A DNA stretch of 64,000 bases from a virus: IMG/VR virus record IMGVR_UViG_3300042553_000326, positions 11,243 through 75,242 of that record. One strand, 5' to 3'. Position 1 is the stretch's first letter. Each line of letters begins with the position of its first letter. A program made the translations under genes and the position numbers. Shown piece after piece: positions 18,101 to 63,957 of the stretch. The notes under the pieces are model-generated. The model made no database searches. It was given only the letters and a program-made list of their open reading frames with translations, and had not been told where the DNA came from.

Positions 18101-20358
18101 AACCCAGCACTACCTGTTATTCCTTTCCCAAGGAAACCCTTTACGATCATATCTACGAATTCTCTGAATCCACCGACTAATCGCTTAGAGGCATCTGCAA
18201 CCAGCTGCTTATCCAGTATCTTTTCCATGTATAACAACAGTACAGTTGTATATACACCGAAGGTAAACATCGGTAGCTTTTCGCCGAATATAGGTATCAA
18301 CTTCTTAGACAGAAGATGTAACGCTGTTCCAACCATTGTGGCTAGGGCTGCAAATACAGGAACTTGAAAGCTAGATGGCAATGCATTGAAAGCATCATGG
18401 CCGAACGCTCTCGACTCTCTGCCCTTCTTTGGACCTCTCGCCACCTGCCCATCTGGGTCAGAATCAACCATCCTGCCTAGCTTTTCATACTTGAACTTAA
18501 CCTTATCTTGTATACCTAAGACTTGTTTCAGCGTATGAATAAAGGCGGCATCCGACTTAGCGAACCAGTCTTTGAAATCAGCTATGAACATCGAGACGTA
18601 CCTGCCTATGCTGGTAGATAATAAGCTATCCATAACAGATGAGAACTTCTGCGAGAAGTAACTCTTTATGGACTTCATAACATCTACAAGTTCTGCATAG
18701 TTGGACTTAACAGCATCCATGAAGGATAAGAAAGGAGTTTCCTTTTGACCCTGTGCGCCATTCAATCCGACAGTTCTAACGCCACTGTTTACCCCAACCA
18801 TCGTGAAACCACGACGATCAGACATTTCTGAGTCTGAATAAACTCTGCCAGGTCCGCGACCGATTTTCTCTGGGACTTTCTCAACAGCACTTCTGGATTT
18901 TAAATCCTTCAGATAAGCTCTAATGGTAGTAAGTGTTTTGGAAAAGCTTGTTGTAATCTTATCGATACTGGAGGATAGACCTCCAAAAATATCTTTGAAT
19001 ACACCACCTATTAATACTCCCGCTGCGACAAATACAGCAACTACTTTAGCAGCCCACATTTTCACAGAAGACAGGTCAGGCAAAAATGTCAACAACTCTT
19101 TGAACTTAGTTTTATACTGTTCAAAATCGAAGAGACCATTCATCATACCTTTGATAGCTTCGAATGCATTCCTGGCAATAGCTGGTAAATCTTGGATAAA
19201 TTTGATCGTATCCAGCATAAGGTCTATGATCGCAATTTCGAACACAGACGCGTAATGCTGAATTCTTTCAGCGAACTTACCCATGGCTACGGCCATATTG
19301 TTTATTTGTTCAGCTGGGCCGCCGGAGCTAGAAAAGAATAGATTAGATATAGCTCTGAATAACAGAAGTCCAGATGTCTGAGCATTTTGGAAAGCCTGTG
19401 CAAATGTAACACCAACTTTCTTGAACTTAGAGTCCATTACATCGGCCTGACTCAGTATTGCTCTAAACACTTCATCAGCAGTAAGTTTACCCTCCTCACC
19501 CATCTTACGCAGGTCGCCGATAGCCTTACCCATTCCTTCGGCTATTGCCCTGGCTAATGCAGGTGCATTCTCTAACACTGAGCGAAGTTCTTCACCAGCT
19601 AAGATACCAGATGCTAAACCCTGGCCTAACTGCAAGATAGCGCTTCTAGCTTCCTGCATTGTGGTTCCAGACACAGCTAATGACTTGCCAATAGTAGAAG
19701 TCACTCTAGCAACCTCACGTTGGCTCACACCAAGTGTGTCACTAGCTTGGGCAATCTTGGTGTACAGTGTTGCAATATCAGCTAATGGTGTGCGAGTAGC
19801 CGTTGCAATGTGAGTTACATCTCTGAAGGCATTAGCGAACTTAGTAGTGGAATTTGTAACTAAATTAATCTTCGTATCGATATTGGTTAAGATATCTGAA
19901 AATATAGCTAGTGAGGCAGCTGCACCGGAGGCGACAGTCACCTTAAGCAAGGTATTAGTTAATCCACCAGTCGACTTACTCGCCTTCTCAGTAACAGATG
20001 AGAATTCTGAAACAGATCTAGAATACGTCTGTAATTGTCCAGAGGCTTTATCAAGACCGTCAGCAGTAAAGTTAGTAGGTCTTCTAAGTGCATTCTTTAC
20101 CTTATCTACTTCTCTACCGAGCTTTTGTACATTAGCTGTTGCGGTTCCAGTAGCGACCTCTGCCTTATTGCCTTTTAAACCTTCTTTGAAACTGGTAGTG
20201 GACTGACCCAGCTTATCGATTTTCTTTTGTGCTTCATCAGCATTGACTTTAAGCTTTATATCATTTACGTTATCCAATCCACGTAACTTAGCTCTTAATC
20301 TGTCAACGGTAGAATTAGCTTTCTTTCCATCAACTAATACTTCTAATTCTATTGACAT
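12196..20358 (-). CDS. Tape measure protein with GH73-like glycosidase and HEXXH peptidase-like domains
   Basis: Tape-measure domain (QLGQGLASGILAGEELRSVLENAP); three GG...G.GTGTSDSI...LSNGE(F/Y)V(V/I)NA repeats; LETGYG..NNLGNM..GGYAEDPAY; HEFGH. Confidence 0.92.
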   Translation of the reverse strand: MSIELEVLVDGKKANSTVDRLRAKLRGLDNVNDIKLKVNADEAQKKIDKLGQSTTSFKEGLKGNKAEVATGTATANVQKLGREVDKVKNALRRPTNFTADGLDKASGQLQTYSRSVSEFSSVTEKASKSTGGLTNTLLKVTVASGAAASLAIFSDILTNIDTKINLVTNSTTKFANAFRDVTHIATATRTPLADIATLYTKIAQASDTLGVSQREVARVTSTIGKSLAVSGTTMQEARSAILQLGQGLASGILAGEELRSVLENAPALARAIAEGMGKAIGDLRKMGEEGKLTADEVFRAILSQADVMDSKFKKVGVTFAQAFQNAQTSGLLLFRAISNLFFSSSGGPAEQINNMAVAMGKFAERIQHYASVFEIAIIDLMLDTIKFIQDLPAIARNAFEAIKGMMNGLFDFEQYKTKFKELLTFLPDLSSVKMWAAKVVAVFVAAGVLIGGVFKDIFGGLSSSIDKITTSFSKTLTTIRAYLKDLKSRSAVEKVPEKIGRGPGRVYSDSEMSDRRGFTMVGVNSGVRTVGLNGAQGQKETPFLSFMDAVKSNYAELVDVMKSIKSYFSQKFSSVMDSLLSTSIGRYVSMFIADFKDWFAKSDAAFIHTLKQVLGIQDKVKFKYEKLGRMVDSDPDGQVARGPKKGRESRAFGHDAFNALPSSFQVPVFAALATMVGTALHLLSKKLIPIFGEKLPMFTFGVYTTVLLLYMEKILDKQLVADASKRLVGGFREFVDMIVKGFLGKGITGSAGLIGTLTVIAKLALLFEKGREIALGALKTIATGPTRLAQIGTDKITQQVLQNRLANADLRIANARQSNPADLAAATANRQAVNTQLKDLNKTLAEASKNAKAGLMTLGGGIGGTAGTFAGYQIGVEIVKGMGESSEWAKYGTIIASALTGQAIGAFIGVAAIQLTALFSSAILAGVGKAVAFLLPILTAPITLFIVGVAALVLALTNWDTLVGAVKTAFTFVKENALDPFVNKMGELWENVSKKIKEHIDALTNGPRSFVRDTLKTDTKIPGTDSTVGDLGSFVGGGLIGTWVAVKLLATQLGTTTLSSLSSMGVSLRMIFQNIGPLLNGLFLELAKELRQAFGITSPIVRNLITTLGIALGAVAAVFSSPAVIAAAVIAAKLAVAAGIGYLIYKALRYASGTDLPQQTESAKVNQIPANAAGGPIRGPGTGTSDSILARLSNGEFVVNAAATARHRGLLETINNGGLPGFAKGGYNSFYQNDRMAAKLPNGKQKYAPETTSFDPRALAMAISAARQNGVAISAEDAKALFTNALTENRLDYGVNLLEGKVGSVLERGVKPEFVEPLVQASIKKYGDLILPSMIPSIRNLWSKASVSDADPYGAQLLVEEAMSLIGVNPLGPPQRRYRRDFDLPFAQDIAGKLGVSNLIRKSLGAFGDIHELDSFSSALSYIDDGRNTLDSLHTFKANTYLFHTLLKMRESRKSSIADTILSGRTNGNGSVRDSDGRLIASSSNHVRKNLAVDNAANADLFNYFEKLHIFGTLDARDRMLRGFQTGGFIDFDSLYGGLNSDVKGAGLKRLLSGDAFEGGYSFGDKMIAYPKFGNKGSQLENELKYIIGRHEFGHHELLSNRKALGMSNYIADASSRIGGARIDEEYLAYMHTIANAPFPISSDGKSFMALAMRAYISNLTQETAGESKFLDDAWDFADDATFNGSKNPFSIMSIAMSDEMVRLMADKGPMSQTLRHAAGALMLGTKYRDLVPAQYNPDPSIYGKPQHFEDNPRYKAPKFRQTKFKTPFDFFEWMLRGNEGKDPEGYAAGGSIRGAGTGTSDSILARLSNGEFVVNAKSTAKYQGLLEAINSGAGLPGFSEGGKALFERTYRTSAERVGNTLGVSPDVILRHWGLETGYGAKIVGNNLGNMIAVGNQPFVTRSDKDAKGNPIKQNFRVFKDIIEFEEEYSGLIQRRYKESLNAEADMVKFATGLQKGGYAEDPAYVEKFIGRRLGPKEIEGMVPSSGGSLTDRALAAFNKVIDSMGLGGIRDRILNAIRSAFGKTADESSNAIRDAMGNMELDKANGVIQDALESTGFTTSIEKIAALGDAERSELVDTLDKYTKIRDKVVAYRTAEAGYAAETSEARREILGKVRDEAAKALQPFGGIFGATEFLRKGGPRIDDILNANASPKDALVPNETKGGFSKKLDSMNFSEAVIQTFAGRGDSEFREMLNGFTKEVADGLDEWTEQSIEYHLNRFEEARNAIDAEEAKPGGGDKRIISLNMRKQKSAEKTVGPQIAKAVGESLANIKWGVFIKPEARNLGISLASEFTSQLSQSMSEVFKGNKNWFDGPESLIRGMFNNFTNRIIEVSVDSFVKAFMKGTIEGFIARYMANQAQSFTNIGRIFESKQGPGYEGIGGYFKGIKDNFNEFILGGKNSTTDGSEATDLLQKNLKNLGAVLPDSAGSLTESLQSTPIALKEVVDSGNTIRSKLFSAENKVSEQMSAVNLDAQAKVLDAAANTNAGVLNDNNNFFFSSLSSAWRDLGGILKSAWGDLKSILTSAWDIIKGIFTGGSTAPGGGGLLGGIGGLISGAKEWFTGDTAGGTAAGAAVSTPIAPPDMIIEIPEWQWDFGYGMASGGRVSGAGTGTSDSIATMLSNGEYVINANSTKKFLPLLESINNGSFRRFAEGGLVAGALAVTPAMASIDSSKRMDEQKSQQVFNINITGDVSRQTRSEIQKMIPQIATGVNMHNAEKGRR

Positions 20359-23549: not shown

Positions 23550-24749
23550 TTACGAGTGGAAGACCGGGAGAATACCAAGGCTCAGAGCAGAGCTATACTT
23601 ACGCTGCCACACGCCTTGCACGTACGCCGGAGTACCAGTAACCAGACCGTCAGTAGCGGCGGTAAGGGCAACATAAGCGGCATTTTCCACAACTTCCTTG
23701 TAGTCAGCATCAGACGCGAAAGCATCTTCGCTACCAGCCCAGGTGTAACCAGCCGGATGAGCGATGTAGCCCCAGCGATACCAAATTTCAGTGGTACCAC
23801 CACCTTTGTAGGCGGAAGGCGAACGTGCCATTTCGACCGGAGTCGGAACAGCCAGAGCGTTAAAGTTGATCGAGCCAGGCAGCACGATGAAGCTGGTCTT
23901 CGTACCAGTGATATCAACACCAGGACCAGTGTTCAGCTTAGTCAGCTCGGCGCTAGACATCGACTGAGTGGCTCTAGTCAAGATAAGACGAAACTTACCC
24001 TGGAAAATCGTCTGGAAGTCAACGCCGGCTTCGCTAACCTTATCCTGATCCACCAGATTGGCGGAGCGGAAAGAGGCCATAACTTCAGGGCTAGTAACCA
24101 GGTAGGCGTACGACGGTTCGTAATCCTTCCAACCCTTACCCATAGCTTGCAGGAAGCCTTCGGCACGAGCAGCGCCTTGAATGATAGCGGTAGCATCGAC
24201 AACAGCTTTAGCCGAGCCCAGATCCACGTAGAAGCCATACTTCTTGTCAGTCGGGTCGTTATCAAACGTCTGACCACCCAGACCGTTAGCGCCTTGAGCC
24301 TTACCAGCACCATTAAGGGCTTCGGTAATAGCAACACCCTTAAGCACAGCCAGAAGAGCGTTATGCTCGTCTTGAGTACGCGTCTCGGAGAAGTCGCGAC
24401 CAATCTTGGCCAGACCATCTTCCTGCGTAACAACTTGCTTCATGTTGACCTTCTCAGCGCCATGCGTACGAACGGTCTTAACATACTTCAGGAACTCGCT
24501 GTCTTGCGTAGTCTTAGTACCAGCGGTGCTATCGGAGATCGACGCAACGTTGATAGTGGGATTCAGCGGCTTTCTCCAGCGAAGTTGACCAATATAGGTC
24601 TCGGTGTCAACGTTAATCTCAGGGTTCGAGACAGCGATACCGGTACCAACCAGTTTCTTAGCATTGGTGTAAGCTTCATCAGCATAAGCACCAATTGCCT
24701 CTTGCAGAACGGTGTCAGTTGCACCGGTAATAGACTTTGTAGCGGACAT
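23550..24749 (-). CDS. Major capsid protein
   Basis: 399 aa after the scaffold gene; GGGT..I.YRWGYIAHP.G C-terminal motif; high-expression codon bias. Confidence 0.85.
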   Translation of the reverse strand: MSATKSITGATDTVLQEAIGAYADEAYTNAKKLVGTGIAVSNPEINVDTETYIGQLRWRKPLNPTINVASISDSTAGTKTTQDSEFLKYVKTVRTHGAEKVNMKQVVTQEDGLAKIGRDFSETRTQDEHNALLAVLKGVAITEALNGAGKAQGANGLGGQTFDNDPTDKKYGFYVDLGSAKAVVDATAIIQGAARAEGFLQAMGKGWKDYEPSYAYLVTSPEVMASFRSANLVDQDKVSEAGVDFQTIFQGKFRLILTRATQSMSSAELTKLNTGPGVDITGTKTSFIVLPGSINFNALAVPTPVEMARSPSAYKGGGTTEIWYRWGYIAHPAGYTWAGSEDAFASDADYKEVVENAAYVALTAATDGLVTGTPAYVQGVWQRKYSSALSLGILPVFHS

Positions 24750-24764: not shown

Positions 24765-25466
24765 TTATCGAGAGAATTTACCTGCAGCAGCCATCGCAAT
24801 GACTTCTGCCTGTGATTTAGCAAATAAAGAAGTACTCTTCGACTGCTCACCTTGGCCACCTTTAGGTTCGCCTTGGCCACCAGCTCCAGAGTTAGTTCTC
24901 GGTTTAAACAAGAAGGCTTGATCTTCGTCAGCCGCAAAGGACTTGACAAAATCGTGCAATGATACACCAGACTTATGAATCCACTCGCCTTTATCATTAC
25001 GTACGAGCTGATCGATTACTTCCTTAAAAGCAATCTGTGAGGCTCGTTCGTTTCTGAATTCTAGAATACTAAGTGCGGTTTTAACTTCCACGTCGCGGGT
25101 AAGTTCAACAACACGCTTCTCAGCAGCTTCTCTGGCAATCTTCTCGTCCTTCAGACGTTGCTCATAAGCTTCCTTATGTTTACCTTCGTCCTCCAAACGC
25201 TTAAGTTCAGCCTCACGCTCAGCAGTTTCCTTAGCCTTTAATTTAGCTTCTGCTTCATCACGTGCTTTGTAAGCCTTGTCTAGATTTTCTTTGATCTTCG
25301 CTAGTTCAGCATCAGATTTCTCTTTAGCCAGACGCTCAATCTTTTCCTCAGCGGTTTCGTTCTTAAGTCTTTCCTTTTCTTCCTCTTTCTTAATTGCAAG
25401 CTCTTCCGCAGCAATCTCTTCAGGAGTCTTAGGGGTACCGTCTTCTTTGTTTGGATTTACAGCCAT
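24765..25466 (-). CDS. Capsid scaffolding protein
   Basis: E/K-rich coiled coil, FLFK...SGAG tail; directly upstream of the capsid gene. Confidence 0.75.
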   Translation of the reverse strand: MAVNPNKEDGTPKTPEEIAAEELAIKKEEEKERLKNETAEEKIERLAKEKSDAELAKIKENLDKAYKARDEAEAKLKAKETAEREAELKRLEDEGKHKEAYEQRLKDEKIAREAAEKRVVELTRDVEVKTALSILEFRNERASQIAFKEVIDQLVRNDKGEWIHKSGVSLHDFVKSFAADEDQAFLFKPRTNSGAGGQGEPKGGQGEQSKSTSLFAKSQAEVIAMAAAGKFSR

Positions 25467-25542
25467 TTTGTTTCATCTCCTGGGCACGGCCCAAAAACTT
25501 CTCAAGAGAGCACACACGGTGCACTCCCTGAGTAGATTAAAA

Positions 25543-28500
25543 TTATCCGATCCCGTACCAGTACAAATTCTTATCGAACTTATGCTCAATAGGTTTCAGA
25601 ATGTCTTCTCTTGTGAGGATATCCTCGATTTGCAATACTTTACCACCAACAACAGAACGACCAGGCACTGGAATAAGTCCTGTGTCGATAGCCTCATTGA
25701 GATATTGGTCATACAGATCCTTAGGCAAACCTCTTGCACGCATCTCATTCAGTGTGTGCAGGATAACGTTAGACTCTAAAGATTCAGCATATATCTCTCT
25801 AAGTGCATCCCTTGCCTTCAGCATGTCAGCAGCGTTCGACAAGAACGCATCATGAACAGTTGAAGTATCTATGTTATTCCTTCTTCCCCATAGATGATAT
25901 TTCTTTACTAATACAGCATCGTTACTGTGGTTAGTGTTAACCCCGAAAGCTGTCTTAGCTTTGTTTAAATCAGCGATATCCTGCATAGTATCAGACTTAT
26001 TTCTAATCTCTTGCCACCATGTAGGATCGGTCTTCTGTTTAACCTGAACGATATTCGTTATCCACTCACCATCCTTACTTTTGTACAATAGTTTTTCCTC
26101 GAAAGACTGTGTGAACTTTTGTTCAACAACCTTTCCATCGAAATTAACTACAGGTACATTAGTCCAGTTCTTAGGTAATTTATTTGGATGCAAAACATCG
26201 AATCCACCAAACAGATTCTCTTCTATATCGCCTAACTTAAACTTTACCTTTCCAAGGTTCTTACCTGTTACACGATCTATAGGATCTTTAACTCCGAATA
26301 CAATATCAGAGAATGTACTATCAGGTTTGAACCAAGGTATTCTTTTTAGAAGTTTCTCGCTAAGAGATTCAGATGCTTTAGTACCTAGTATTTCGGCTGC
26401 TAGTGGTGACAACTTATCACCAGAGCTGTAATTACCAAATACCATCTGTCTCGCGATAACTGCAAAGTCTAATGAGGATTGCGATGGCTTAGCACTGGTT
26501 AGGAAATCAGCTGCTAGTCTACCAAAGAACTTAGTGAAGCCTTTTAGAATAGGGACTTCTTCAGATAAGTTTTCACTCATTATATTTGCTATTAATTTAA
26601 AGTCATCAGGAGTGACGACCTTATTGTAATTTCTAGACATCTTCTCTACGAGATCATACGTCTTAGGTTCAAGGAACCAAAGTTCCTCAAGAATGTCATC
26701 CCCAGGATCGATACCTTTATTGAAGATGTCCTTCACGTCTTGTCGTAAACTCTTAAGTTCAGCAGCTGTATCAGGATCAAACCTTTCGAATCTAGCTGCA
26801 CGAGCACTTATCTGCTCTAATACAGTGTCTCTATCCGAAGCCTTAACCACTAGGGTCGAGTCTTGTTTATCTAATGCTTTAGCCAACTTAGTTTCTACGT
26901 TGATAATACCAGTACGTTCACCTGCTCCGTAGAAGGTCACCATGTTTTGAGCTTTAGCAGCCTTACGTAGATCTTTTTCCGTTAAGCCTAACTTTTGATT
27001 AAGCTTAATGAATCTTGGGTCATCGAAGGTTCTTGCTGCAATCTCATCGTACAAACGTTTCTTCTGATTGGTTGGTACTACATTAGATAACTCAGCCAAC
27101 TGCTTATTTTTAGTTGTGAGTGCAATGATCTGAGCGCCAGACGACGATGCATCCTGCTCAAGAGCTATTGCTATCTTGTAATCACTTAGCTTAGCTAAAG
27201 ACAGCTTATCATATTTCCCATCAAGGAAATTATGTATTTTAGCTGCTTCAAGTGACAGTCTAAGAGCCTTACCGAGGTCTTCACCATCTATCTCTTGGAC
27301 AAACTTAGAATCCAGCACAGCTCTAATGTCACCTGGCTTACCACGTAGAATGTGATTACCAATCTTAACCATCTCAGGGCGTAATTCTGATGCTATCAGC
27401 TGTCTACCTGTGACGGATAATGAGTTATGTCTACCTTCGAACTTATCAGAAAGTCCACCTAGAAATCCACCTATCTGATCATTTAGGTTCCTCCATCCAG
27501 CTTCACTGAATGGCTTTGCTTCCTTACTATTTAAGAAAGGTCTAAATGATTCACCAGATTGAGGCCCAATAAAGCCTCTTTCGTAGATACGTGCACGGTG
27601 ATCTAGGAATGGTATATTACTGAACGAAGCATTCTTCTTTCTGAGCCAATCCATTACTTTGAATCGCTCATAGGCATCGCCACGCTCTACCATGTATTCG
27701 CGGTAGGTATTCAACTCATTGTAATGTTTAGCGCGACCTTTATCGTCTTCAAACAACATCAGCTTATTGATGAAATCATAGAACTCATTATCGATACGAT
27801 ATTCAGTCCTACCTGCCCAATTAAGAGCTTGTGTCATCGACTTATCAATTAATGCCTCTGGAAAGTCGGCAAAGGAGTCTGTAGACGTTATAGGTATGCG
27901 GGTATCGTAATAACCTAGAACACCTTCGTCTATGAAATACGTTTTGTAACCCTCTCTAATAATTAAACGGTTTCGCGCATCGATTGGTGTGACACGGATA
28001 CCTACATCTACTTTTCTAGTTAACTTAGAGTAGTCTTGGATGCGTTTATCGACAATACGAAGATGCACAGAGAATGTATCATAAGCAGGACCAAAGTATT
28101 TATTACTATTCTTACTCTTCATCCGCCTCTTCTGAACACCAAAGGTTTCTAACTCGTAGAATCCCTTTCCTTTTGCATCGTCTAACAGTTTAACACCAAG
28201 CTTCCACCACTCTTGTCTACTGCCTCTGTAGTTAGCTAGATTATAGAGATCACGTCCGATTGCTACAGCGAGCTGATCCCTATCAGGACCATCTGCCAGA
28301 GCTAATCTGTTTGCAAACTTAAGATAGAATTGCTTTTTCTGAGGTTCTTCTAGGCGAACTAATAGTTTTAAAGGAATTTTCCTATCCAACACGTTACGCA
28401 ATTCTCTAGCGATCTTCGGTAAGGTTTTATCTTCCCATTTATTCTTTCGTTTTATATTAGCTAGGAACTCATCATGAAGCTCGTCTAGTTGGCTAGGTCC

Positions 28501-30177
28501 AAGAACTGGATCTAGAAAGTTATCTTGCTTCAACCGCTGAAGTAACCCTGTATTGCGCCTCAGCTGTGTCTCCATGAAGTCCGACACGTTCATCACATCA
28601 AACTTCATCTGTCCATTGAGGACTGCCTTAAGATTCTGCCAAGGCTCTTTATTGTTTCTAAACCTGGTAAATGTAATTCTAAGATTCTCTGTGACAACAG
28701 CTCTCTCATTAGAACTCATTTCATCTTCAAGCTTATCTACAAACTTTATGATGAAGTCTTTATCAGCTTGCTTAAGGTCTGCACTCTCATTAACTAACCT
28801 ATAACTGTTACTCAATACTGAAGGATTGGGCTGAAATACACGGCTATCCTCGTATCGTCCCGTTAAGGGGTTGAATAATAACTGATCTTCATTAGGTGGT
28901 GTAGATAGAATTCTAGTCTTACTAGCTTTCTTAGTGCCTAGCAGATTACCTCTATAGTTCGTAAGTGATAACGTACCTTCTAAGTCCCTAGACTGCAGCA
29001 GGTAATACTCTTTAAGTGCCTTCTGCAATTCAGTAGATGCAAGTATCTCATCAGGCCTTGATGCACCTAACTTAAGTACATCTAATCTTTCCTTTGCAGC
29101 AGCAAACTTCATCGTATCACCAGGTAAGCCTATACCTGAGGTAGTCATTCTGCGAAGCTCAGCAATACCTACTTCTTTACCAGAAGGATTAGTGAATTTA
29201 TCCACAGTAAGCTGTCCACTTCTAAACATATTCAGTCTAGTGGTATCACCAAGGTGTCTAAGCTGGACTTCAGTAGGTTGACGTTGTAACCACTCACTAT
29301 AGGACTCTTTTAGTGGTGATTGTCCGTCGTAGTAAGCGATTTGCTTAGCTGTGAGACCCTCTAGATTACGTTTTCGAATTTGGGCAATATTCTCGAGTGA
29401 ACCCAAGTCGCTATAGCTTTTGACAATAGGTACAGTGGTACTCCTGCAATGAAAATGAGCAGGAGGCAAATGAGATACATCACTAATAGGATACACAGTG
29501 CCATCGCGATGACGGCAAATAGGGGTAGTTCTAGAATCGAGAACAGCAACGTACTGCCAACCTCTAAGGACTTTCTCATTAGCTTTATAGACCTCATGAT
29601 CTGTTTGTGAACGAACCGAGGTCATAGCAGTTCTTACTAAGCCTAATGACTGATTCATTGAGATATCAAGGACGTTACCTTTACGTATGGACAACGCAAT
29701 AGCCTTTTCATCTAGCCCTTGTGCAATACCATTACGTATTACAGCTTCTAATCGTTTACGCTCGGAGAGGCTTACTGTATTCCAGCCTTCGAGCAGTGTA
29801 ACATCATTGTAGATAGGACGCTTTAACACAATGTCTTCAGCTATACGATATTGTGGCTTAGATGTGCGCCATATCTTACCAACAGCATTATCCAACTGTT
29901 GATAAGTGTAGGATATTTGGCTGGATACTAAGTCAAGTAAAGATCTAGAGCTTACATTATATGCTTGCCCATAGGTCTTTCTTAATAGCACATCTATCTC
30001 TTCCATCATCTTAGGTGACATAGACGCCTTATTACGCAAGATGATATCATCTATCTTCGTCTTATGGCCATTGACAATGGTGTATATCTTACCAGATACA
30101 CGCTCCTCGTACAACCTCATCATTGCAGCTCTGTCTACAATATTATCGTATAGAGCTGTATTCACATTTTGTTTCAT
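25543..30177 (-). CDS. Minor head (SPP1 gp7/Mu gpF-like) protein fused to a T7-family DNA-dependent RNA polymerase
   Basis: N-terminal WQYVAVLDSRTTPICR..DG...PPAHFHCRST; C-terminal DHRARIY, motif A EQDASSSGAQ, motif B RKAAKAQNMVTFYG, motif C HSNDA...VHDAF. Confidence 0.9.
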   Translation of the reverse strand: MKQNVNTALYDNIVDRAAMMRLYEERVSGKIYTIVNGHKTKIDDIILRNKASMSPKMMEEIDVLLRKTYGQAYNVSSRSLLDLVSSQISYTYQQLDNAVGKIWRTSKPQYRIAEDIVLKRPIYNDVTLLEGWNTVSLSERKRLEAVIRNGIAQGLDEKAIALSIRKGNVLDISMNQSLGLVRTAMTSVRSQTDHEVYKANEKVLRGWQYVAVLDSRTTPICRHRDGTVYPISDVSHLPPAHFHCRSTTVPIVKSYSDLGSLENIAQIRKRNLEGLTAKQIAYYDGQSPLKESYSEWLQRQPTEVQLRHLGDTTRLNMFRSGQLTVDKFTNPSGKEVGIAELRRMTTSGIGLPGDTMKFAAAKERLDVLKLGASRPDEILASTELQKALKEYYLLQSRDLEGTLSLTNYRGNLLGTKKASKTRILSTPPNEDQLLFNPLTGRYEDSRVFQPNPSVLSNSYRLVNESADLKQADKDFIIKFVDKLEDEMSSNERAVVTENLRITFTRFRNNKEPWQNLKAVLNGQMKFDVMNVSDFMETQLRRNTGLLQRLKQDNFLDPVLGPSQLDELHDEFLANIKRKNKWEDKTLPKIARELRNVLDRKIPLKLLVRLEEPQKKQFYLKFANRLALADGPDRDQLAVAIGRDLYNLANYRGSRQEWWKLGVKLLDDAKGKGFYELETFGVQKRRMKSKNSNKYFGPAYDTFSVHLRIVDKRIQDYSKLTRKVDVGIRVTPIDARNRLIIREGYKTYFIDEGVLGYYDTRIPITSTDSFADFPEALIDKSMTQALNWAGRTEYRIDNEFYDFINKLMLFEDDKGRAKHYNELNTYREYMVERGDAYERFKVMDWLRKKNASFSNIPFLDHRARIYERGFIGPQSGESFRPFLNSKEAKPFSEAGWRNLNDQIGGFLGGLSDKFEGRHNSLSVTGRQLIASELRPEMVKIGNHILRGKPGDIRAVLDSKFVQEIDGEDLGKALRLSLEAAKIHNFLDGKYDKLSLAKLSDYKIAIALEQDASSSGAQIIALTTKNKQLAELSNVVPTNQKKRLYDEIAARTFDDPRFIKLNQKLGLTEKDLRKAAKAQNMVTFYGAGERTGIINVETKLAKALDKQDSTLVVKASDRDTVLEQISARAARFERFDPDTAAELKSLRQDVKDIFNKGIDPGDDILEELWFLEPKTYDLVEKMSRNYNKVVTPDDFKLIANIMSENLSEEVPILKGFTKFFGRLAADFLTSAKPSQSSLDFAVIARQMVFGNYSSGDKLSPLAAEILGTKASESLSEKLLKRIPWFKPDSTFSDIVFGVKDPIDRVTGKNLGKVKFKLGDIEENLFGGFDVLHPNKLPKNWTNVPVVNFDGKVVEQKFTQSFEEKLLYKSKDGEWITNIVQVKQKTDPTWWQEIRNKSDTMQDIADLNKAKTAFGVNTNHSNDAVLVKKYHLWGRRNNIDTSTVHDAFLSNAADMLKARDALREIYAESLESNVILHTLNEMRARGLPKDLYDQYLNEAIDTGLIPVPGRSVVGGKVLQIEDILTREDILKPIEHKFDKNLYWYGIG

Positions 30178-30239
30178 TTAGGCTCCTTGATAAATATTAA
30201 AAAGAGCACTATTGCTAGCGCCCTTGAAGTATTCACCAG

Positions 30240-31826
30240 TTATTCCTTATCTTTGAACGGCTGTTCGTCATTATCAAAGTTTGCTCTATTAGCCTCAGCA
30301 TCATGTTTCTTTTTCAGAGACACGATGAATTCATCTGCATTAATCTCATCTTGTGCTGTCTCATCATCATAATCAGGTGGCACAATATCATTCTGCTTAA
30401 GAATAGCAAGCCAAGTAGAACGCGGAATAAGACCTTCCTTGTACCATTCAGTAACGAGGCGTAACCATGCGTCACCAAGCGGTGCAGGATTGAAGTCAGC
30501 TGATAGATTGAACTCTACATCTGAAGACTTGAAGTCAGTATTGTAACGCCAATTAAGCATGAATGCTATAATGTCAGCTAGTGTATTGCTAACCTTAGTA
30601 TTCATCGTGCCTAATTGAGCTGTCTGTGAGGCATTCCTAATATCAAGTGCAATACCAGACTGACCCACCTCAGGCGTAAGCATTCTAACACCTAACCTAG
30701 CCATCTCATCGATAGCACTAGCGATAGTAGCTTCCATATCCTTAAGAGCTTCTGTAGGTGTCTTCAGGACGTCCGCAGTATCGCCTCTATTGAGTTTAAT
30801 CCAAGTACCTAACCCGGAATCAACGATCTTGTCAAAATCCTCGTCAGACATGTCTGTGGAAATCACAGGTGTATATGTAGCTGCCCCATAGATCAGATGA
30901 TTACGTCTACTCATCTTGTTATAAAGATTAATCTCTTTATCAACGAGCGGAGTAATAGACGGTTCGATAGGGTCAATACAACCATTAAGAGGCCATGCAG
31001 GGATAAAATCCAATGGCTTATTGTTCATTAAGATACCTGTGATGGTATCTTTAAGCTTCATTGAGATATTCTTACCGTTAGAGGCGGATACAGATCCACC
31101 TGTAGCCTTAGCCTGTGTATCAACCTCAGCCTGAAACACCCTTATCTGATACTTACCGTCTAGAAGCTCATGCACCCATACTGTTTCAATGTATTCTGGG
31201 TGAAATTCATTCTTAATGAAGCTTTCTGAATGACCCTTCACAATGACACGAGTTAGCTGTGACCTACCATTTACAACTTCAGTCTTCCAGTTGATAATAC
31301 TCTCAGCTGGCCAAATGATAGGAAATGGAGCAAAGCGCTCTATAAGTTCAGCGTTAGTCATACCATGATTCTTTGGCACAACAGGGTAATCTACATAGAT
31401 CCATGTACGTGACGTTTGTACTTCTTCCCACAGAGCGCCATCTAAGAATGCTGCTAAAGGTTGACCATCCGAAGTAAATGCATCTAGTATCCATTGCTGT
31501 GCCTCTTCAGGAGCCTTCTCAGGAAGCTTTAGATGAGGCTGTTTACGAAGCAATCCACCTACAATGAACTTAGCAAATGTACTCACAATACCAGGCAATT
31601 CAGCCTCGGACTTGTAGAATTCATATTGCTGTGGTGTCATGTTAGGGGAGAAAGGGATAAGCAGATTAGTGTAGTTGACAGTGTCAATCAGAGAGTCATA
31701 ATCTTTAACATAGCGCTCACCGCTACAGACAGCTCTACTACGTTTCCATAATTCAGCAATGCTATCATATAAGCTACATGGCTCACCTACACCACGTAGC
31801 GGTTCAGAAGCGCTAACGTTAGCCAT
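30240..31826 (-). CDS. Portal protein (DUF4055-like)
   Basis: 528 aa between terminase and the minor head gene; IINW motif; synteny. Confidence 0.8.
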   Translation of the reverse strand: MANVSASEPLRGVGEPCSLYDSIAELWKRSRAVCSGERYVKDYDSLIDTVNYTNLLIPFSPNMTPQQYEFYKSEAELPGIVSTFAKFIVGGLLRKQPHLKLPEKAPEEAQQWILDAFTSDGQPLAAFLDGALWEEVQTSRTWIYVDYPVVPKNHGMTNAELIERFAPFPIIWPAESIINWKTEVVNGRSQLTRVIVKGHSESFIKNEFHPEYIETVWVHELLDGKYQIRVFQAEVDTQAKATGGSVSASNGKNISMKLKDTITGILMNNKPLDFIPAWPLNGCIDPIEPSITPLVDKEINLYNKMSRRNHLIYGAATYTPVISTDMSDEDFDKIVDSGLGTWIKLNRGDTADVLKTPTEALKDMEATIASAIDEMARLGVRMLTPEVGQSGIALDIRNASQTAQLGTMNTKVSNTLADIIAFMLNWRYNTDFKSSDVEFNLSADFNPAPLGDAWLRLVTEWYKEGLIPRSTWLAILKQNDIVPPDYDDETAQDEINADEFIVSLKKKHDAEANRANFDNDEQPFKDKE

Positions 31827-32164: not shown

Positions 32165-33499
32165 TTAGAATCCAAAGCCACGTTTCGCTGTAGTACCACC
32201 AGAACGAACAGGAAACTTATATTCAAAGAAGTATCGAATACCATCAGAGTAGTGTTCAATACCAGCTGATTTATCTATTGTTGCAGTATCTGGATTGTTA
32301 TCAACCCAAACAGTCTTCTCTAACGACTCTATGACGCCTTGACATTGTGGATTAACATAAGCATTAACCTCACCAGCTGCGGTCTTGAAGTGCTTATTCA
32401 CAGAAGCCACACTGTCCACTATCTTAGGCGCAGCATCTCTTGCCAACACAGTAAAGCCCATGCTTCTTAGAATGCTAAAATCAGTAACACCAACAGGAGC
32501 AGAAGTCTTTCTACTATTGCCGGATGGATCTGGGTAACAAATAACACGATGTCCTTTATCCTTGTATTTAGCTTTAATTGCGATCCCTAATGTTTCTGTA
32601 TCAGGATGCCCCTTGAATTCGTGATGACAATCAGCACGCTTACCTCTAACTGTCCACACAGATGAGCATTGTAATCCGACGTTAAAGTCAATTGCAACAT
32701 GAACATCTTCACCATCATGTATAGGCTCGATATTCTTGTTAACATGTATCTTGCGATCAAAGCAATAGAACACATTCTTACCAGAGCCTTCGAACTTAGC
32801 AAGGTATTCTCTATTAAAGAATACAGGATCAACACGATGGCGTATCTTGTCTATTTCTTCTGGATCTAACAGCGGTGATTGTGTGTAATCGAAATGATAA
32901 GACTTGAATGTAGGATCTACCTCTTCAAAGTGATACATATCGTATAGATAGTTGTACCCTTTAGGCGTAGATATTGTCAATGATCTACCTGCAGAAGGTG
33001 CTCTATAGAGTTTAGCTCTCTTAGGCGACCAACGTGTCGAGATACAGGGTTCTATAATACTTTCCCATGCATCTTTATGGCCAGCACCTTTAGTCCACGA
33101 GGATACCTCATCATTAACAGCATAATATACACCTGTACCACGCTGTCTCTCTACAGCCTCGTAGGAGAACAACTTAATTTCTACATCATTAGGCAACTTT
33201 ATTCTACCAAGGTCTCTGCTGGAACTTTGAGCATAACGTTCTAATCCAAGTTGATACATTAGCAAAGGATAATAAACGTCAGTCACCTGTGAATAGGTAG
33301 GTGCATTTATTACAACATTCTTATTAGGGACGCTAGGACGTAATGTCATAAGCTCCCATGCTGCAGTAGATGCAGAGACAGCTGCCATGTGTGACTTGCC
33401 CCATCCTCGTGAGGCTACAACAACAGCGTGTCTCACACTCTTCTCTACAAATAGATCTCTATAAACCTTACTCTGGGTGGGGTGCAGACGGATTGACAT
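32165..33499 (-). CDS. terL: Terminase large subunit
   Basis: Walker A ASRGWGKS, Walker B AVNDE, STPKG, REYLAKF, nuclease IDFN and HYSDGIRY. Confidence 0.93.
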   Translation of the reverse strand: MSIRLHPTQSKVYRDLFVEKSVRHAVVVASRGWGKSHMAAVSASTAAWELMTLRPSVPNKNVVINAPTYSQVTDVYYPLLMYQLGLERYAQSSSRDLGRIKLPNDVEIKLFSYEAVERQRGTGVYYAVNDEVSSWTKGAGHKDAWESIIEPCISTRWSPKRAKLYRAPSAGRSLTISTPKGYNYLYDMYHFEEVDPTFKSYHFDYTQSPLLDPEEIDKIRHRVDPVFFNREYLAKFEGSGKNVFYCFDRKIHVNKNIEPIHDGEDVHVAIDFNVGLQCSSVWTVRGKRADCHHEFKGHPDTETLGIAIKAKYKDKGHRVICYPDPSGNSRKTSAPVGVTDFSILRSMGFTVLARDAAPKIVDSVASVNKHFKTAAGEVNAYVNPQCQGVIESLEKTVWVDNNPDTATIDKSAGIEHYSDGIRYFFEYKFPVRSGGTTAKRGFGF

Positions 33500-34427: not shown

Positions 34428-34483
34428 GACGTCTGTAGCGATTAATACAGGGGGAGCGGTAATGGGTTAATTTAACAGTTTCG
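34428..34483 (-). promoter_or_regulatory. Candidate phage promoter, copy 2
   Basis: Near-identical to 5618-5674; upstream of the packaging/head operon. Confidence 0.6.
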
Positions 34484-34557
34484 CGATAGAAAATAATTGT
34501 GTAAATCTTGAACTTTGGAAAATTAAACCTTTAAGTAATCTTGTGGCATTTCGAATC

Positions 34558-34631
34558 AAAAAAAAAAAAAAAAAAAAAAAAGTTGGAGAGACCCTTACCC
34601 AGTACCCGAAGGCACCAGATAAGGATCTCTC
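34558..34631 (-). terminator. Intrinsic terminator with a long T tract
   Basis: agagatccttatctggtgcc-ttcg-ggtactgggtaagggtctct hairpin, then T24 a few bases downstream. Confidence 0.85.
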
Positions 34632-37381: not shown

Positions 37382-37434
37382 AAAAAAAAAAAAAAAAAAA
37401 ATTATTTAACAAATAACGCCCCGGAGGGCGCTAT
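37382..37434 (-). terminator. Intrinsic terminator with a T20 tract
   Basis: atagcgccc-tccg-gggcgttat hairpin followed by ttgttaaataa and T20. Confidence 0.75.
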
Positions 37435-38236: not shown

Positions 38237-38313
38237 TGGTCTCTCGAGATGGAATCGAACCATCGACCAACCGCTTAGAAGGCGGTTACTCTTATCCGCT
38301 GAGCTATCGAGAG
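38237..38313 (-). tRNA. tRNA-Arg(TCT)
   Basis: Cloverleaf; anticodon loop CTTCTAA, GGTTCGATTCC, encoded CCA. Confidence 0.93.
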
Positions 38314-38771
38314 TATACTGTATATTTATCGATAAGATTGTTGTCTACTGCAGACTGCATTTCTTCTGACAACCCGTCTAACTGGGCCTTTCTAGAAAAT
38401 TTACCACTACAACTCCTAGAACAGAATACACCGTATTTCTTAACGGCTGTTTGAAATGCCTGTCTGTAGCTACGTTCGAATACGCATTTGCACTGTGGGC
38501 ACTCTAATAAACAAGTCAAGACACCCTGCTCATAACCATGCATTCTCATATGCTCGATGCGATCCATAACCTGAAGATTATCTACACTATTATCCCGCTT
38601 GTCATGATTTTTATGATGCACAATCTCTTCGGACGTAAGTAATCTGCCTAATTTATTTTCCATAATGATTCTGTGGTGAAACACATAGCCTAACACAGTA
38701 GCATTTGGGTGGTCCGGCACTTTAGCGTAAATATAGTCGCCTTTTGAGACAATACCTTGTATTATCCACAT
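38304..38771 (-). CDS. HNH endonuclease with C-terminal Zn finger
   Basis: YVFHHRIIME..LGR.L...EIVHHKNHDKRDN..DNL; CPQC...FCSRSC. Confidence 0.85.
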   Translation of the reverse strand: MWIIQGIVSKGDYIYAKVPDHPNATVLGYVFHHRIIMENKLGRLLTSEEIVHHKNHDKRDNSVDNLQVMDRIEHMRMHGYEQGVLTCLLECPQCKCVFERSYRQAFQTAVKKYGVFCSRSCSGKFSRKAQLDGLSEEMQSAVDNNLIDKYTVYSR

Positions 38772-39563: not shown

Positions 39564-39635
39564 TTCCCTATGTCTGGATCAAACAGACGACCTATCGCTT
39601 ACAAGGCGATTGCTCTGTCACTGAGCTAATAGGGA
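39564..39635 (-). tRNA. tRNA-Thr(TGT), atypical T-loop, no encoded CCA
   Basis: TCCCTAT/ATAGGGA acceptor, ATCGC-CTTGTAA-GCGAT anticodon arm, T-loop TTTGATC. Confidence 0.8.
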
Positions 39636-39717: not shown

Positions 39718-39791
39718 TGGCCCCTGTTGGACTCGAACCAACAACCAAAGGATTATGAGTCCTCTGCTCTCACCAATTGAGCTAAAGGGCC
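39718..39791 (-). tRNA. tRNA with CAT anticodon, most likely Ile2 (lysidine); ends CCG rather than CCA
   Basis: GGCCCTT acceptor and CTCATAA loop, resembling E. coli ileX rather than tRNA-Met. Confidence 0.85.
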
Positions 39792-40713: not shown

Positions 40714-40798
40714 TGGTCCGAGGAACGGGAATCGAACCCGTATAGCTATCGCTGGCAGATTTTAAGTCTGCTGTGTCTACCAATTTCACCACCCTCGG
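40714..40798 (-). tRNA. tRNA-Leu(TAA)
   Basis: GCAGA-CTTAAAA-TCTGC anticodon arm, long variable arm, GGTTCGATTCC, encoded CCA. Confidence 0.93.
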
Positions 40799-42635: not shown

Positions 42636-42754
42636 TTAATTTATTTCCTTTTTAATAATGAAAATACGAAGTCTCTATTCTGAGCTTCATATAAGATACC
42701 CTTAAATCCGCAAGGGCCACGGTCTACAAAACCTACACATATAGCATTGTTCAT

Positions 42755-42935
42755 TAATTCAACAGTTTCGACCGGCAAGACGCACCGACCGGACTGCCAT
42801 GCTACTAAACGCAAAAGTCGCCCCAAAATGCCACGCGGCATACCCAGGTTGGCACGCTACGCCACGTACGCAACGACGCCATAATGCCCCTATGGGGCGC
42901 GGTTCCGGCGGCAAGACGGAGCACTTTTGCAAGAC
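42755..42935. repeat. Partial promoter-like motif plus GC-rich island (divergent copy 3)
   Basis: taattcaacagtttcg followed by a GC-rich tract containing caggttgg, gcacgctacg and cgcaacg.cgc, also found in copy 1. Confidence 0.5.
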
Positions 42936-60346: not shown

Positions 60347-60800
60347 TCACTCTTTAAACGCCGAATCCCATTCCTCATCAGTTGAGCCAGTCATAATGAA
60401 CTCACGGTCTGATGGAGATAGGTGTGGCATGACATTTTGAATCAAACCGCCTGCTTCCCACTGCTGAAGTTGCTCTTCTGTTACATCAATCTCCTTGGTA
60501 CGCACAATACCAGAGATCATACTACGCTTTGTTATCTGCATTTGTATATCCCGTCATTCAAATTTGCTCATCATATAACTCCCAGAAGTAGCCTCCTGGT
60601 CCACAGTTATCCCTAAAGGATCTAGCATCAGAAGCTGGTGAAGTATTGTTCTGAGCTGCCGCTAGTGCTTTAGGATCTTTTGCTACAACATTCGGGTGAC
60701 AACAATTCAGATAAGTAGCACCCTGGACGTTCACCGCCCATTTACAATTTCGACACAACCTTAATATTGCAAGTTTTATCTCAGGCAAAGCAGTACTCAC
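60347..60800 (-). CDS. Two small hypothetical genes (60347-60541, 60558-60800)
   Basis: LIQNVMPHLS..DREFIMTG....W; Cys-rich ORF. Confidence 0.55.
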
Positions 60801-63764
60801 TTTCTATTATCTGCTGAATGTCTAATACACCGAAGTCGACTCTGCTGATATCAGCGTGTATACATTCGAAGATTTGGTGTATCGGATTCTCAGAATACAT
60901 CTGTACAAATGTCTCTCTAACCTTCACATATAGGTCTGGCATGTCCGCTAACAAACAACCAAAGCTGTCATGGATTGTCGTTATAGGAAAGTCGCACGCT
61001 TCGATAGTAAGCATTAAGTGTGCTGCATCTAGACTATGAATGATATTTGGAGATGCACCTTGGGATTGTTTACGTTTTGATGGTTTAGTCTCCTCGATAA
61101 TACTGATGTTAACCTGGTATGTGTTTTCGAAATAGCCCGTGGATTGAATCTGACCTAATGGCGGACCATATTGAATCCACACCTTCTTTACTACACCTTC
61201 AATGTAATACTGCATTACTGGAAAGTTTGTCGCTGGAACGGTCCACTGAAGAAATCTACTCTCTTCTTCAGCTAGCTTTCCTGCCTCCTCAAAGATGGCC
61301 AACAGTTGCATTGGCCTCTTTAAGGCTGACTTACAAGTGTCAAACACCATACGACCCATGTAAGCTCCCCAACGATTCTCTAGGAAGTTTAATACAGCAA
61401 TACCGTGTTTTCTTGCATCTGATAGCTGCTGCTCACCGAGTCCATAGGCAGTTCCACCATAAGGGATTGTCATAACATTCAATGTGTTAATAATTACTCG
61501 CTAGGTAATCACTAATCTAATTTCGCGAATTCACCGTATCTATCCAAAGCTACCTCACAATATTTAGCATAAGCTACCTCCGGGTCGATAAAGAAGCCTA
61601 GAAACTTATTTTTCCCATCTATCTTTATTTGTGCTACCCATTTTTGCTTCTGCTTGTGCCATGAGACACCTTTAAATCCACTCTTATTATTCGCCTGTTT
61701 GCCTCTATTAAAATGATTTTGTTGAAATGTACATACACGTAGATTTTCCAGTTTGTTATTATACCTACAACCGTCTATATGATCTATAACAAGACCATCT
61801 GGAATCTTACCATTATGCATTTCCCATATCACTCTATGCGCGAATAAATATTTACCTTCAAAGTAGATACCAATGTATTCATCATCACGTAAGGACCCAG
61901 CTAAGTCTCCATCTTTCATCCATTTAGCTGGTGCCTTTAGCCAATATAGCTCACCGTCCCGATAACTGAAAAGATTATTATAATCCATTATTTCTCCGAA
62001 ATTAAATTACTGCATGTCACCATGCAGATCAGACTATATCATCATTGCCATTTAGACAATGGAGTGCGCTTCGAACAGGCTTCTGTTCTACTCCCTTGCG
62101 GGATAGTCGTTGCACCTTACGCTAACGCGTCTTGGCTCAGGATTGACTCAACGAGTTGTTCCCTGAATTCACACTCTTTTAAAAGCGCCATGTTAATAAC
62201 GCTTTGAAATCTTCCTTCGCTGCTTCGCGTCTGTGATACGACTCCAGAAGATGCAGCTAGACGTCATTTCCAATATATCCTTGTGAGCCTTCTTAAAGTC
62301 ATGCAATTCACCAACCATGTTGGCACGACGATCACTCTTCAAAGGTTCTTTAGATATGTTCTCCTTTATAATGAGCAACTCATCGATTACATCAGAACCT
62401 AGCTCATACAGGTCTCTCTGCAGTTTGTTGACATCTTGGTTAATCATTTCCCATACCTTCTCTGATACATACTTATAGAGATCACCGGGCATCTGGGATG
62501 GTGTTAGATTAACGTGTGGTGCTGTTGATTCATCGCGAGTTAATGCAGTTAGATGTTGTGAACCGTTTGTACTACCGTCTATATAAACCTCCATATGAGA
62601 TTCATAATCATATTCTCCAATAACATCTTTATGTAAATCATACACATTCATTTGCCATACTCTGAAGTTGTATAATTCACGGCATGCTGCAAGGAATTGC
62701 CACGGTTTATCTGCTTGCATCCAACCCTGATTTAACTTAGGGTTATCAGCATAAGCAAGGAATATTTCCTCATTATCTTCTGCCCACCGAATTCTATCTC
62801 TCAGTGGTATCTTATCAGTCTTGGCACCATCTTCCCTACCTGAATCACCAGCCCAATTATTTGCTATACTGATACACAACCATTCAAATCCACTCTTTCC
62901 AATGCATTTTGAATCGTCTCTGAGTAGAAGACCTTTAGCGAGATCACTCCCTTGCTCGTGGAAGTAAGCTGTGGCAGGGTAGATTCTACCTCTAAAGTCA
63001 CAGTAATAAAGATGGTAGAAAGTTTTTCCTATGAAGTTACTTGCTATGTCACCTACTGCTTTTGCTTCTCGAAGCTTACTAGCCTTTGCTTCGGGGTTCT
63101 GCATACACCAAATATCAGCGAAGGCATCCGTCTTATTACGTAAAGCCCATTGATACAAATTGAAGATGAACTCATTTACACGCCACCCAACATGTTGCTT
63201 CTTATTTAGCACACTAAATATTACAGGATGCTTCTCAGGATTCACCTTGTCAAGCAATTCCTGATTGTTGGTCTTTATGATTCGCATACCAGTCATATGT
63301 CTACTGGTTGTCCAATCAGAGTATGGCTCTATTGAAGGAAGCTTCTCCGTTTTAGCAGAGCTAAGTTTACTCCACATCTCAGATAGTGAATCCTCGTTAA
63401 GGATTTCTATAACATATACACCGTGGTTGTTAGTACCACGTTGATATGACAACTGTAATATAGATTCCTCCTCGAAGGAATATAGAATGAAGGCTCCAGT
63501 CTTAGCAGCAACTGCTGACTTTCTTGGCATGTTATATCGAGTCCTAATAGCATGACCGATACCACAAATCACTTCTGAGAATAAAGCTTTCTTCGTTGGA
63601 TTCGATTTCGTTGTCCTAGAATATAAGTAGATTGTTGATATCGCAATATCTATGTAGTCTTCTATGACTAGTTCTTTTAGATAGCGTATCGTATCTCTAT
63701 TAGATACTTCGGAGTTGAGTCGATTACGAATTGATTCTACGATTCTATTTTGTGTAGGTGTCAT
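60781..63764 (-). CDS. T7-family RNA polymerase, spliced (exon 1 63764-62199, exon 2 61479-60781; about 754 aa)
   Basis: DFRGRIY, QGSDLAKGLL, PWQFLA, motif A DGSTNGSQH, motif B rejoined as RKISKR|NVMTIPYG, SPNIIHSLDA, IHDSF, C-terminal YCFA. Confidence 0.93.
61480..62198 (-). mobile_element. Group I intron (719 nt) in the RNAP gene
   Basis: P1 AAGCGU/GCGCUU with a U-G pair at the splice site; P3 GAGUGUG/CGCACUC; core elements GAAUUCAGGGAA, AAUCCUGAGCCAAG, UGCAACGACUA, GAUAUAGUCU; terminal G at 61480; P10 pairing. Confidence 0.92.
61512..61988 (-). CDS. Intron-encoded HNH homing endonuclease with AP2-like C-terminus
   Basis: AHRVIW...IDHIDG.R.NN..ENLR; NKSGFKGVSW...KW.AQI...LG.F. Confidence 0.9.
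   Translation of the reverse strand: MDYNNLFSYRDGELYWLKAPAKWMKDGDLAGSLRDDEYIGIYFEGKYLFAHRVIWEMHNGKIPDGLVIDHIDGCRYNNKLENLRVCTFQQNHFNRGKQANNKSGFKGVSWHKQKQKWVAQIKIDGKNKFLGFFIDPEVAYAKYCEVALDRYGEFAKLD

Positions 63765-63923: not shown

Positions 63924-63957
<34 letters not shown>

Follow-up and report, generated by a model that had tools for sequence, protein, structure and literature searches.

A minor head protein fused to a complete T7-type RNA polymerase in a lake-water siphovirus, a candidate virion-delivered polymerase

Why a long-tailed phage should join an RNA polymerase (RNAP) to a minor head protein is the question raised by one gene in the 64,000-nucleotide stretch of DNA analysed here (the window), which comprises bases 11243-75242 of the 75,242-bp IMG/VR virus record IMGVR_UViG_3300042553_000326, rated complete by CheckV. 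The gene (25543..30177, minus strand, as are all coding genes of the phage) is a single open reading frame (ORF) of 1544 aa plus stop, without internal stop and lying between the portal and scaffold genes, as the original prediction, made from the DNA letters, had described it. Its product, MuF-RNAP, joins an N-terminal MuF domain to a T7-type single-subunit RNAP with intact catalytic residues; the gene stands in the late head operon, and both the fusion and its pairing with a second polymerase of the same genome (RNAP2) are conserved in relatives. From these data, all computational, the answer that we favour with moderate confidence is a virion-delivered polymerase built on the MuF cargo principle, of which a few copies would dock at the portal, accompany the DNA into the next cell and transcribe the early genes there, as in coliphage N4.

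The N-terminal part of MuF-RNAP makes it a true member of the MuF family. The MuF / SPP1 gp7-like minor head domain extends over residues 1-346 (29140..30177, minus strand), in keeping with the first 345 or so aa assigned to such a domain by the original prediction, and was recognised by Pfam (Phage_Mu_F, PF04233, at residues 143-248, 54.7 bits against a cut-off of 29.6), by PHROG 241 ('head morphogenesis', residues 1-344, E 2e-61), by invariant columns and by fold matches in BFVD. The motifs LDSRTTPICR and PPAHFHCRST are present where they had been placed (residues 213-222 and 238-247, respectively), and L213, D214, T217, C221, P238, H241, C244, R245 and S246 are invariant among the 26 diverse full-length representatives of the family used for alignment (20-60% mutual identity). 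The predicted fold of the MuF region had 94 BFVD matches at E <= 0.001, and the named proteins in the best 50 of these were mostly minor capsid or head morphogenesis proteins and included MuF-ADP-ribosyltransferase (MuF-ART) fusions. The AlphaFold2 model of residues 1-600 had a mean predicted local distance difference test score (pLDDT) of 85.4, and a Foldseek search of these residues against the PDB gave no match at E <= 0.001, hence no solved relative of the MuF domain or of the middle domain that follows it. The latter (residues 358-563; 28489..29106, minus strand) is a helical domain of about 200 aa, confidently folded in the model and conserved in the family, which lies outside the range aligned to T7 RNAP and matched no solved fold; it is separated from MuF by a flexible linker of low confidence (residues 347-357; 29107..29139, minus strand; pLDDT <50 in the same model).

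The rest of the chain, from residue ~564 to 1544 (25546..28488, minus strand), is a complete and, judging from its residues, apparently active T7-type polymerase module. Structure alignment, Foldseek and the comparison of a family profile with the PDB delimit it, and MuF-RNAP is thereby also a true member of the T7-like polymerase family. RNA_pol (PF00940) was found by Pfam in the same chain as Phage_Mu_F (40.2 bits against a cut-off of 22), and residues 997-1211 were matched by two RNA polymerase PHROG families. The AlphaFold2 model of residues 345-1544 (mean pLDDT 80.8; predicted template modelling score, pTM, 0.75) superposes through its residues 220-1200 on residues 35-883 of T7 RNAP with a Z of 30.7, a root-mean-square deviation of 3.4 over 527 residues and 16-17% identity, and aligns with mitochondrial polymerases at Z ~28. 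The C-termini of the module and of T7 RNAP align and the C-terminal end is free in both, which fits the position of the module as C-terminal cargo. In the search of the family profile against the PDB, T7 RNAP was reached at E 1.9e-22, mitochondrial polymerases at ~1e-18, and both N4 RNAPII subunits were also found; the N4 virion RNAP (vRNAP) was not among the matches listed. Searching the whole protein against PDB sequences with phmmer returned a chance match only (RomX, E 0.22), and it took the family profile to find T7 RNAP. Profile searches and structure prediction, the first checks proposed with the original prediction, therefore found Phage_Mu_F and RNA_pol in one chain and predicted both folds.

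All four polymerase motifs named in the original prediction were found at the positions it gave. The T/DxxGR motif DHRARIY (residues 859-865; 27583..27603, minus strand) aligns to DWRGRVY of T7 and contains R863, invariant among the 26 representatives; motif A, DASSSGAQ (residues 1009-1016; 27130..27153, minus strand), contains the invariant D1009, aligned to D537 of T7. Motif B, RKAAKAQNMVTFYG (residues 1071-1084; 26926..26967, minus strand), carries the invariant K1075 together with Y1083 and G1084, each at least 90% conserved, and its counterparts in T7 are presumably R627, K631 and Y639. In motif C, TVHDAF (25843..25860, minus strand), the HD pair (residues 1442-1443, nt 25849-25854) is aligned to H811-D812 of T7 and D1443 is at least 90% conserved. 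Catalytic and ribonucleotide-selecting residues are consequently retained throughout the family (D1009, K1075, R863, Y1083, G1084 and D1443). The profile alignment further pairs the segment NHSND with HSQDG of T7 (H784), and locates a hairpin-forming segment at the position of the T7 specificity loop. A low-confidence insertion at residues ~1232-1336 (26170..26484, minus strand), a gap in 67-86% of distant family members, is lineage-specific and restricted to the close subfamily. As to the assignment of the polymerase to the 'C-terminal half', the motifs are indeed there; the extent was understated, as the module begins near residue 564 and is set apart from MuF by the helical residues 358-563.

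Could the fusion simply be two genes joined by a sequencing or assembly error, or the decayed remnant of a polymerase? We regard this as hardly credible, having come upon nothing in its favour. A word-indexed search with the polymerase part returned 408 clusters at 90% identity, nearly all of them ~1540 aa long, carrying both PF04233 and PF00940 and lying on 65-90 kb contigs. When 1.84 billion representatives were searched exhaustively with HMMER, only 164 matches emerged, and in every full-length one among them the polymerase starts ~650-740 residues into the chain. Phage_Mu_F was detected in all 26 aligned representatives, and PF00940 in 19 of them at E <= 0.001. One 812-aa match seemed to be unfused, but its relatives lie within longer ORFs, one measuring 1603 aa and another, which runs off the contig end, at least 1420 aa; the former, when scanned, carried MuF, and no free-standing member of this polymerase clade was found by profile searches and among the relatives of short matches. 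The search of related phages suggested along with the original prediction thus showed a fusion common to more than 400 clusters and reaching named phages: in EBPR siphovirus 1 (gp47-gp49; 57% identity, same gene order) an inserted HNH endonuclease interrupts the gene, and in DSS3_VP1 and DSS3_PM1, cultured roseophages of the Naomviridae with the same gene order, the homologue (31% identity along 90% of the length) is a single coding sequence of 1463 aa, annotated 'head morphogenesis' and adjoining the portal gene. All are genuine homologues of the entire fusion that bear head-protein annotations only. The same single ORF therefore stands in hundreds of independent assemblies and two isolate genomes, with invariant catalytic residues.

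At the locus itself, a stop or frameshift between the domains, one of the outcomes that the original prediction held to be fatal, is contradicted by contigs from two lake-water runs that span 25000-30800 without differences at ~37-40x depth. Identical pieces occur in two further runs and no indels were seen, the first three of these four matching runs possibly being themselves the source of this DNA. The public runs with the MuF-RNAP gene are lake-water metagenomes, no RNA run being listed among them, and the phage is a long-tailed (siphovirus) phage of lake water. The cluster census, the invariant residues and the agreement of contigs refute an artefact for practical purposes, and the fusion is not a product of assembly.

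That both parts of the chain are under selection is indicated independently by mobile elements. At 40 related loci covering the full gene, 26 were uninterrupted and 14 had between one and five insertions each, at sites that recur near residues 244 (MuF core), 695, 878, 985-988, 1073-1082 (motif B), 1102, 1414-1418 (NHSND) and 1447 (motif C), motif B being the main site of intron insertion. Rfam identified group I introns at these sites in four loci (L009, L041, L042 and L069). One of them (L009), whose gene is 98% identical to the one described here, bears a 1,067-nt intron within motif B, and the ORF inside this intron, with weak, sub-threshold matches to HNH and NUMOD1, probably encodes a homing endonuclease. 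Homing elements settle in the most conserved and essential sequence, and the whole fused protein is still encoded at 40/40 full-length loci; introns at critical sites combined with a fused spliced product are independent evidence that both domains matter, and the persistence of the fused protein despite the introns points to strong selection on both parts. The recurrent invasion of catalytic motifs provides, in effect, a natural map of the most constrained residues.

Two further observations concern the same sites. In some relatives (L050, L064, L067 and others) an in-frame insert of ~146 aa recurs at residues 985-988; it had no Pfam match and may be an intein or an inserted domain. In two lake-water runs, small contigs match the window over 33 nt only (26917-26949, in motif B of MuF-RNAP) and are unrelated on both flanks; an intron-bearing or otherwise rearranged variant may coexist with this phage.

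The position of the gene bears on what the polymerase is for. Its neighbourhood reads, in order, terminase large subunit (32165-33499), a 108-aa ORF, portal (30240..31826, minus strand; PHROG 145, E 8e-57, and DUF4055), MuF-RNAP, scaffold (24765..25466, minus strand; PHROG 206, immediately downstream), major head protein (23550-24749), adaptor, head closure protein and major tail protein. This is an SPP1-type order with MuF-RNAP in the slot of gp7 and the portal as the presumed docking partner of MuF, and the spacing of 62 and 76 nt from the portal and scaffold genes makes the MuF-RNAP gene part of the late head operon. Co-folding of the portal with MuF residues 1-345 scored 0.00 against a mark of 0.32, a result that speaks neither for nor against docking. 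According to PMC6316719, the portal directs gp7 of SPP1 to the interior of the procapsid in few copies, and gp7 assists the onset of infection; delivery of MuF-fused toxins by the same route has been proposed (PMC5512222, PMC6316719).

The genome also encodes a second polymerase. RNAP2 (60781..63764, minus strand) is a compact T7-like polymerase with exons of 523 and 233 aa (PF00940 at 121 and 101 bits), the motifs DFRGRIY, DGSTNGSQH, HSLDAAH and IHDSF and the end ...YCFA. A group I intron (61480-62208, minus strand; Rfam Intron_gpI at 62010-62208, 86 bits) interrupts its motif B (KISKR / NVMTIPYG); this intron contains an HNH endonuclease ORF (61512-61988) and strikes the same motif as the introns in the fused polymerase of relatives. 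RNAP2 and the fused polymerase share 22-25% identity, in the motif regions only, and the idea that the fused polymerase arose when RNAP2 was recently duplicated was rejected on this ground. The pair of polymerases is also present in DSS3_VP1, where RNAP2 alone bears the annotation 'RNA polymerase', and in two complete uncultured relatives. Just ahead of RNAP2, a hydrophobic ORF of ~46 aa (MSLQEAGFVIIMTF...; 63765-63905, minus strand) overlaps its start (TGAATG), and a similar small membrane ORF precedes RNAP2 in one of the related genomes (G002).

It might be argued that the fused polymerase works only in the producing cell, either as a late-gene enzyme or held at the portal, with the fusion to MuF serving co-regulation or sequestration and no active enzyme being delivered. 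The grouping of the gene with late genes would suit such a role, as would the promoter-like elements described below that precede both late operons and need some polymerase, and ejection is a predicted step. Yet RNAP2, which is conserved along with the fusion, can already serve middle and late transcription, profile searches and the relatives of short matches yielded no free-standing member of the clade of the fused polymerase, a polymerase transcribing its own operon would need another enzyme to start, and C-terminal cargo of MuF proteins is otherwise read as delivered effectors. We consider this alternative distinctly unlikely. Since RNAP2 co-occurs with the fusion, the extra polymerase made late is best explained as serving the next infection, and given a late gene, an invariant fusion and another polymerase at hand, the simplest account is that MuF brings the polymerase into the capsid for that infection.

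Under virion delivery, MuF-RNAP would be synthesised late, alongside the head proteins, its N-terminal MuF/gp7 domain would dock on the portal and a few copies of the whole 175-kDa chain would enter the procapsid. No head protease gene was seen in this phage, and the polymerase probably stays joined to MuF by the linker for that reason. At the next infection the chain would exit with the DNA and then refold, and its polymerase module would initiate at phage-specific promoters, independently of the host polymerase and before the synthesis of any phage protein; RNAP2, produced in the newly infected cell, would take over the later classes of genes. The original prediction, which envisaged delivery with the DNA, is partly supported: MuF and a complete T7-family RNAP do share one chain in the portal-scaffold slot, and transport by the virion, which we infer, fits the computed data, namely the invariance of the fusion over deep divergence, the late head operon, the conserved RNAP2, the phage-type elements ahead of the early cluster and the lack of sigma-70 enrichment.

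The last two points derive from a survey of promoter-like signals, of which at least two classes exist alongside the two polymerases. Class A, TGCG-N7-GGTATCTTATATGAA, has four exact copies, all on the coding strand: one in the window (42686..42712, minus strand) and three at genome positions 4066, 2287 and 1761 (locus L078), within the cluster of small genes situated ahead of RNAP2 on the circular map, the first copy of the cluster directly following a terminator hairpin. These elements, at the head of a cluster of early type, would be the likeliest targets of the delivered polymerase. Three related genomes, whose MuF-RNAP proteins are 53-73% identical to the present one, retain the class A core. 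The assembly of G002 closes into a circle through a 127-bp overlap of its ends, and in it the class A sites are followed in turn by small genes, a hairpin with T17, a small membrane ORF and RNAP2. Class B is represented by AAACTGTTAAATTA (34468..34481, minus strand), upstream of the packaging/head operon that holds the MuF-RNAP gene; as CGAAACTGTTRAATTA it has three copies (42755-42768, 34468-34481 and 5659-5672, minus strand) against 0.005 expected by chance, and the repeat reaches ~55 bp (…ACCGCTCCCCTGTATTAATCGCTACAGA…) in the two copies that precede the packaging/head and the tail-fibre/lysis operons. Class B may be a late promoter class. Sites resembling sigma-70 promoters were in no excess over shuffled sequence.

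Long T runs on the coding strand (T30 at 63927-63956, T24 at ~34535-34558, T19-20 at ~37383-37402 and T30 at genome ~32-61) each follow a GC-rich hairpin at an operon end, the hairpin and T17 of G002 occupying the same place before RNAP2. In the cultured relative DSS3_VP1 (L082 / L002), six coding-strand copies of ATAGGGTGCGTTAA were noted at record positions 19204, 19239, 45929, 46396, 46554 and 59199, the four copies whose flanks were read extending to ...AAAG and two tandem copies lying just upstream of the portal gene; this element may be a phage-polymerase promoter.

Several considerations weigh against virion delivery. Portal docking, packaging, ejection, enzymatic activity and the promoter class used by each polymerase are inferred steps, and neither class can be assigned to either polymerase from the sequence. 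A TATAAT hexamer stands after the terminator of the early cluster, ahead of the RNAP2 operon (genome ~20-40, end of L078), its counterpart in G002 (L080:150-175) reads TGTTATAAT, an extended -10, and either could let the host polymerase make RNAP2 or start the programme, as in T7. A chain of 1544 aa would moreover have to pass unfolded through the tail tube of a siphovirus. For SPP1 gp7 itself, ejection is proposed and not proven in PMC6316719, and the Naomiviridae paper nowhere mentions an RNA polymerase.

Some of these same facts would suit a mainly mechanical role, in which the polymerase is packaged and ejected and, tethered to the portal, takes hold of the leading DNA end and pulls the genome into the cell by transcribing it, gene expression being left to the host polymerase and RNAP2. 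Entry of T7 DNA is driven by transcription by the host and T7 polymerases, and in the present phage all genes are on one strand, so that a single direction of transcription could draw the whole genome in; the TATAAT or extended -10 situated before the RNAP2 operon and the action of SPP1 gp7 at the start of infection are also compatible with this role. It is disfavoured by the T7-like character of the N-terminal domain and of the specificity-loop region, whose retention speaks for initiation at specific sequences, and by the presence of only four class A sites, three of which head a small-gene cluster typical of early genes. A chiefly mechanical function is, in our judgement, unlikely, and it overlaps with virion delivery of a transcribing enzyme rather than excluding it.

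Virion-delivered polymerases are known in few systems, namely N4, crAss-like phages, phiKZ/AR9 jumbo phages and P23-45, and each has changed the understanding of early phage-host conflict. Gp50 of N4 (Schitoviridae) is like MuF-RNAP a single-subunit polymerase of the T7 superfamily that is made late, and both phages have a second T7-like polymerase; in N4 a few capsid-borne copies are ejected and transcribe the early genes, with RNAPII following, and such a relay is in our case a proposed analogy. Gp50, however, is a protein of ~3,500 aa with ejection and encapsidation domains of its own at the N- and C-termini in a podovirus, whereas the chain described here has 1544 aa, a MuF carrier and a long tail to pass, and its module is nearer to T7 and mitochondrial RNAPs (Z ~28-31, 16% identity) than to the N4 mini-vRNAP (Z ~20, 11% identity). 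Chain size, the MuF N-terminus and polymerase similarity thus set it apart from the N4 type of vRNAP. Thermus phage P23-45 is likewise long-tailed; it delivers a virion RNAP joined to its tape measure protein, and the pre-early genes transcribed by this enzyme include that of a second, non-virion polymerase. The likeness lies in a long-tailed phage with a polymerase fused to a virion structural protein; the P23-45 enzyme, in contrast, is of the two-barrel type and rides on the tape measure, and the one considered here is a right-hand, T7-type enzyme on a portal-associated head protein. Fold and carrier accordingly place it outside the P23-45 type, and the presumed tape measure of this phage, judged by size and place, is a separate ORF of 2720 aa (12196-20358).

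As regards the carrier, MuF-toxin, MuF-ART and MuF-RelA/SpoT proteins share an N-terminal MuF domain encoded next to the portal gene and a C-terminal enzyme thought to be packaged and delivered. Their cargo is a small toxin or host-modifying enzyme, in contrast to the template-dependent polymerase of ~980 aa found here. In a survey that covers MuF and polyvalent-protein fusions, the cargo given for MuF comprises RNases, 2H phosphoesterases, RelA/SpoT, PRTases, a zeta-toxin-like kinase and ARTs, and a T7-like polymerase is not among them (PMC5512222). T7 RNAP, to which the module is similar in whole-length fold, in the T/DxxGR, A, B and C motifs and in the free C-terminal end, is by comparison a free-standing early protein of 883 aa that is made by the host polymerase and absent from the virion, with an identity of ~16%. 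No published description of a MuF-RNAP fusion was found in a literature search, which suggests that the fusion is new to the literature, virion-delivered polymerases and MuF cargo being already known kinds.

If delivery holds, the case would add a compact T7-type enzyme on a common MuF carrier in long-tailed phages, and a gene that in Naomviridae and in hundreds of environmental genomes bears the annotation 'head morphogenesis' alone would gain a function. More tentatively, and at somewhat less than even chances, tailed phages would have a third, independently evolved route, a portal-tethered T7-type RNAP that leaves with the leading end of the DNA and, with RNAP2, renders a widespread lineage independent of the host RNAP from the first minute. 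If true, such a lineage would take in freshwater and wastewater phages as well as the marine Naomviridae with deoxyuridine DNA. In this last respect DSS3_VP1 differs from the present phage, whose genome matched neither PurZ (PF00709) nor dCMP/dCTP deaminase (PF00383), so that the fusion is here not tied to deoxyuridine or Z-DNA. The proposal is directly testable, as DSS3_VP1 and its host, Ruegeria pomeroyi DSS-3, are cultured, and the lineage may also supply biotechnology with new promoter-specific single-subunit polymerases and candidate promoters.

Among the minor features of the window, mobile endonucleases are abundant in this genome as in its relatives, and two are free-standing homing-type enzymes, SegE-like GIY-YIG and HNH_3, at 54374-54931 and 38304-38771 (minus strand). 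Four tRNA genes (38240-38313, 39564-39635, 39718-39791 and 40717-40798, minus strand) are found in the region of small genes that separates the replication module from the packaging module, and an N-terminal domain of dATP/dGTP diphosphohydrolase (PF18909, 88 bits) is encoded at 58803-59444 (minus strand), adjoining the family A DNA polymerase.

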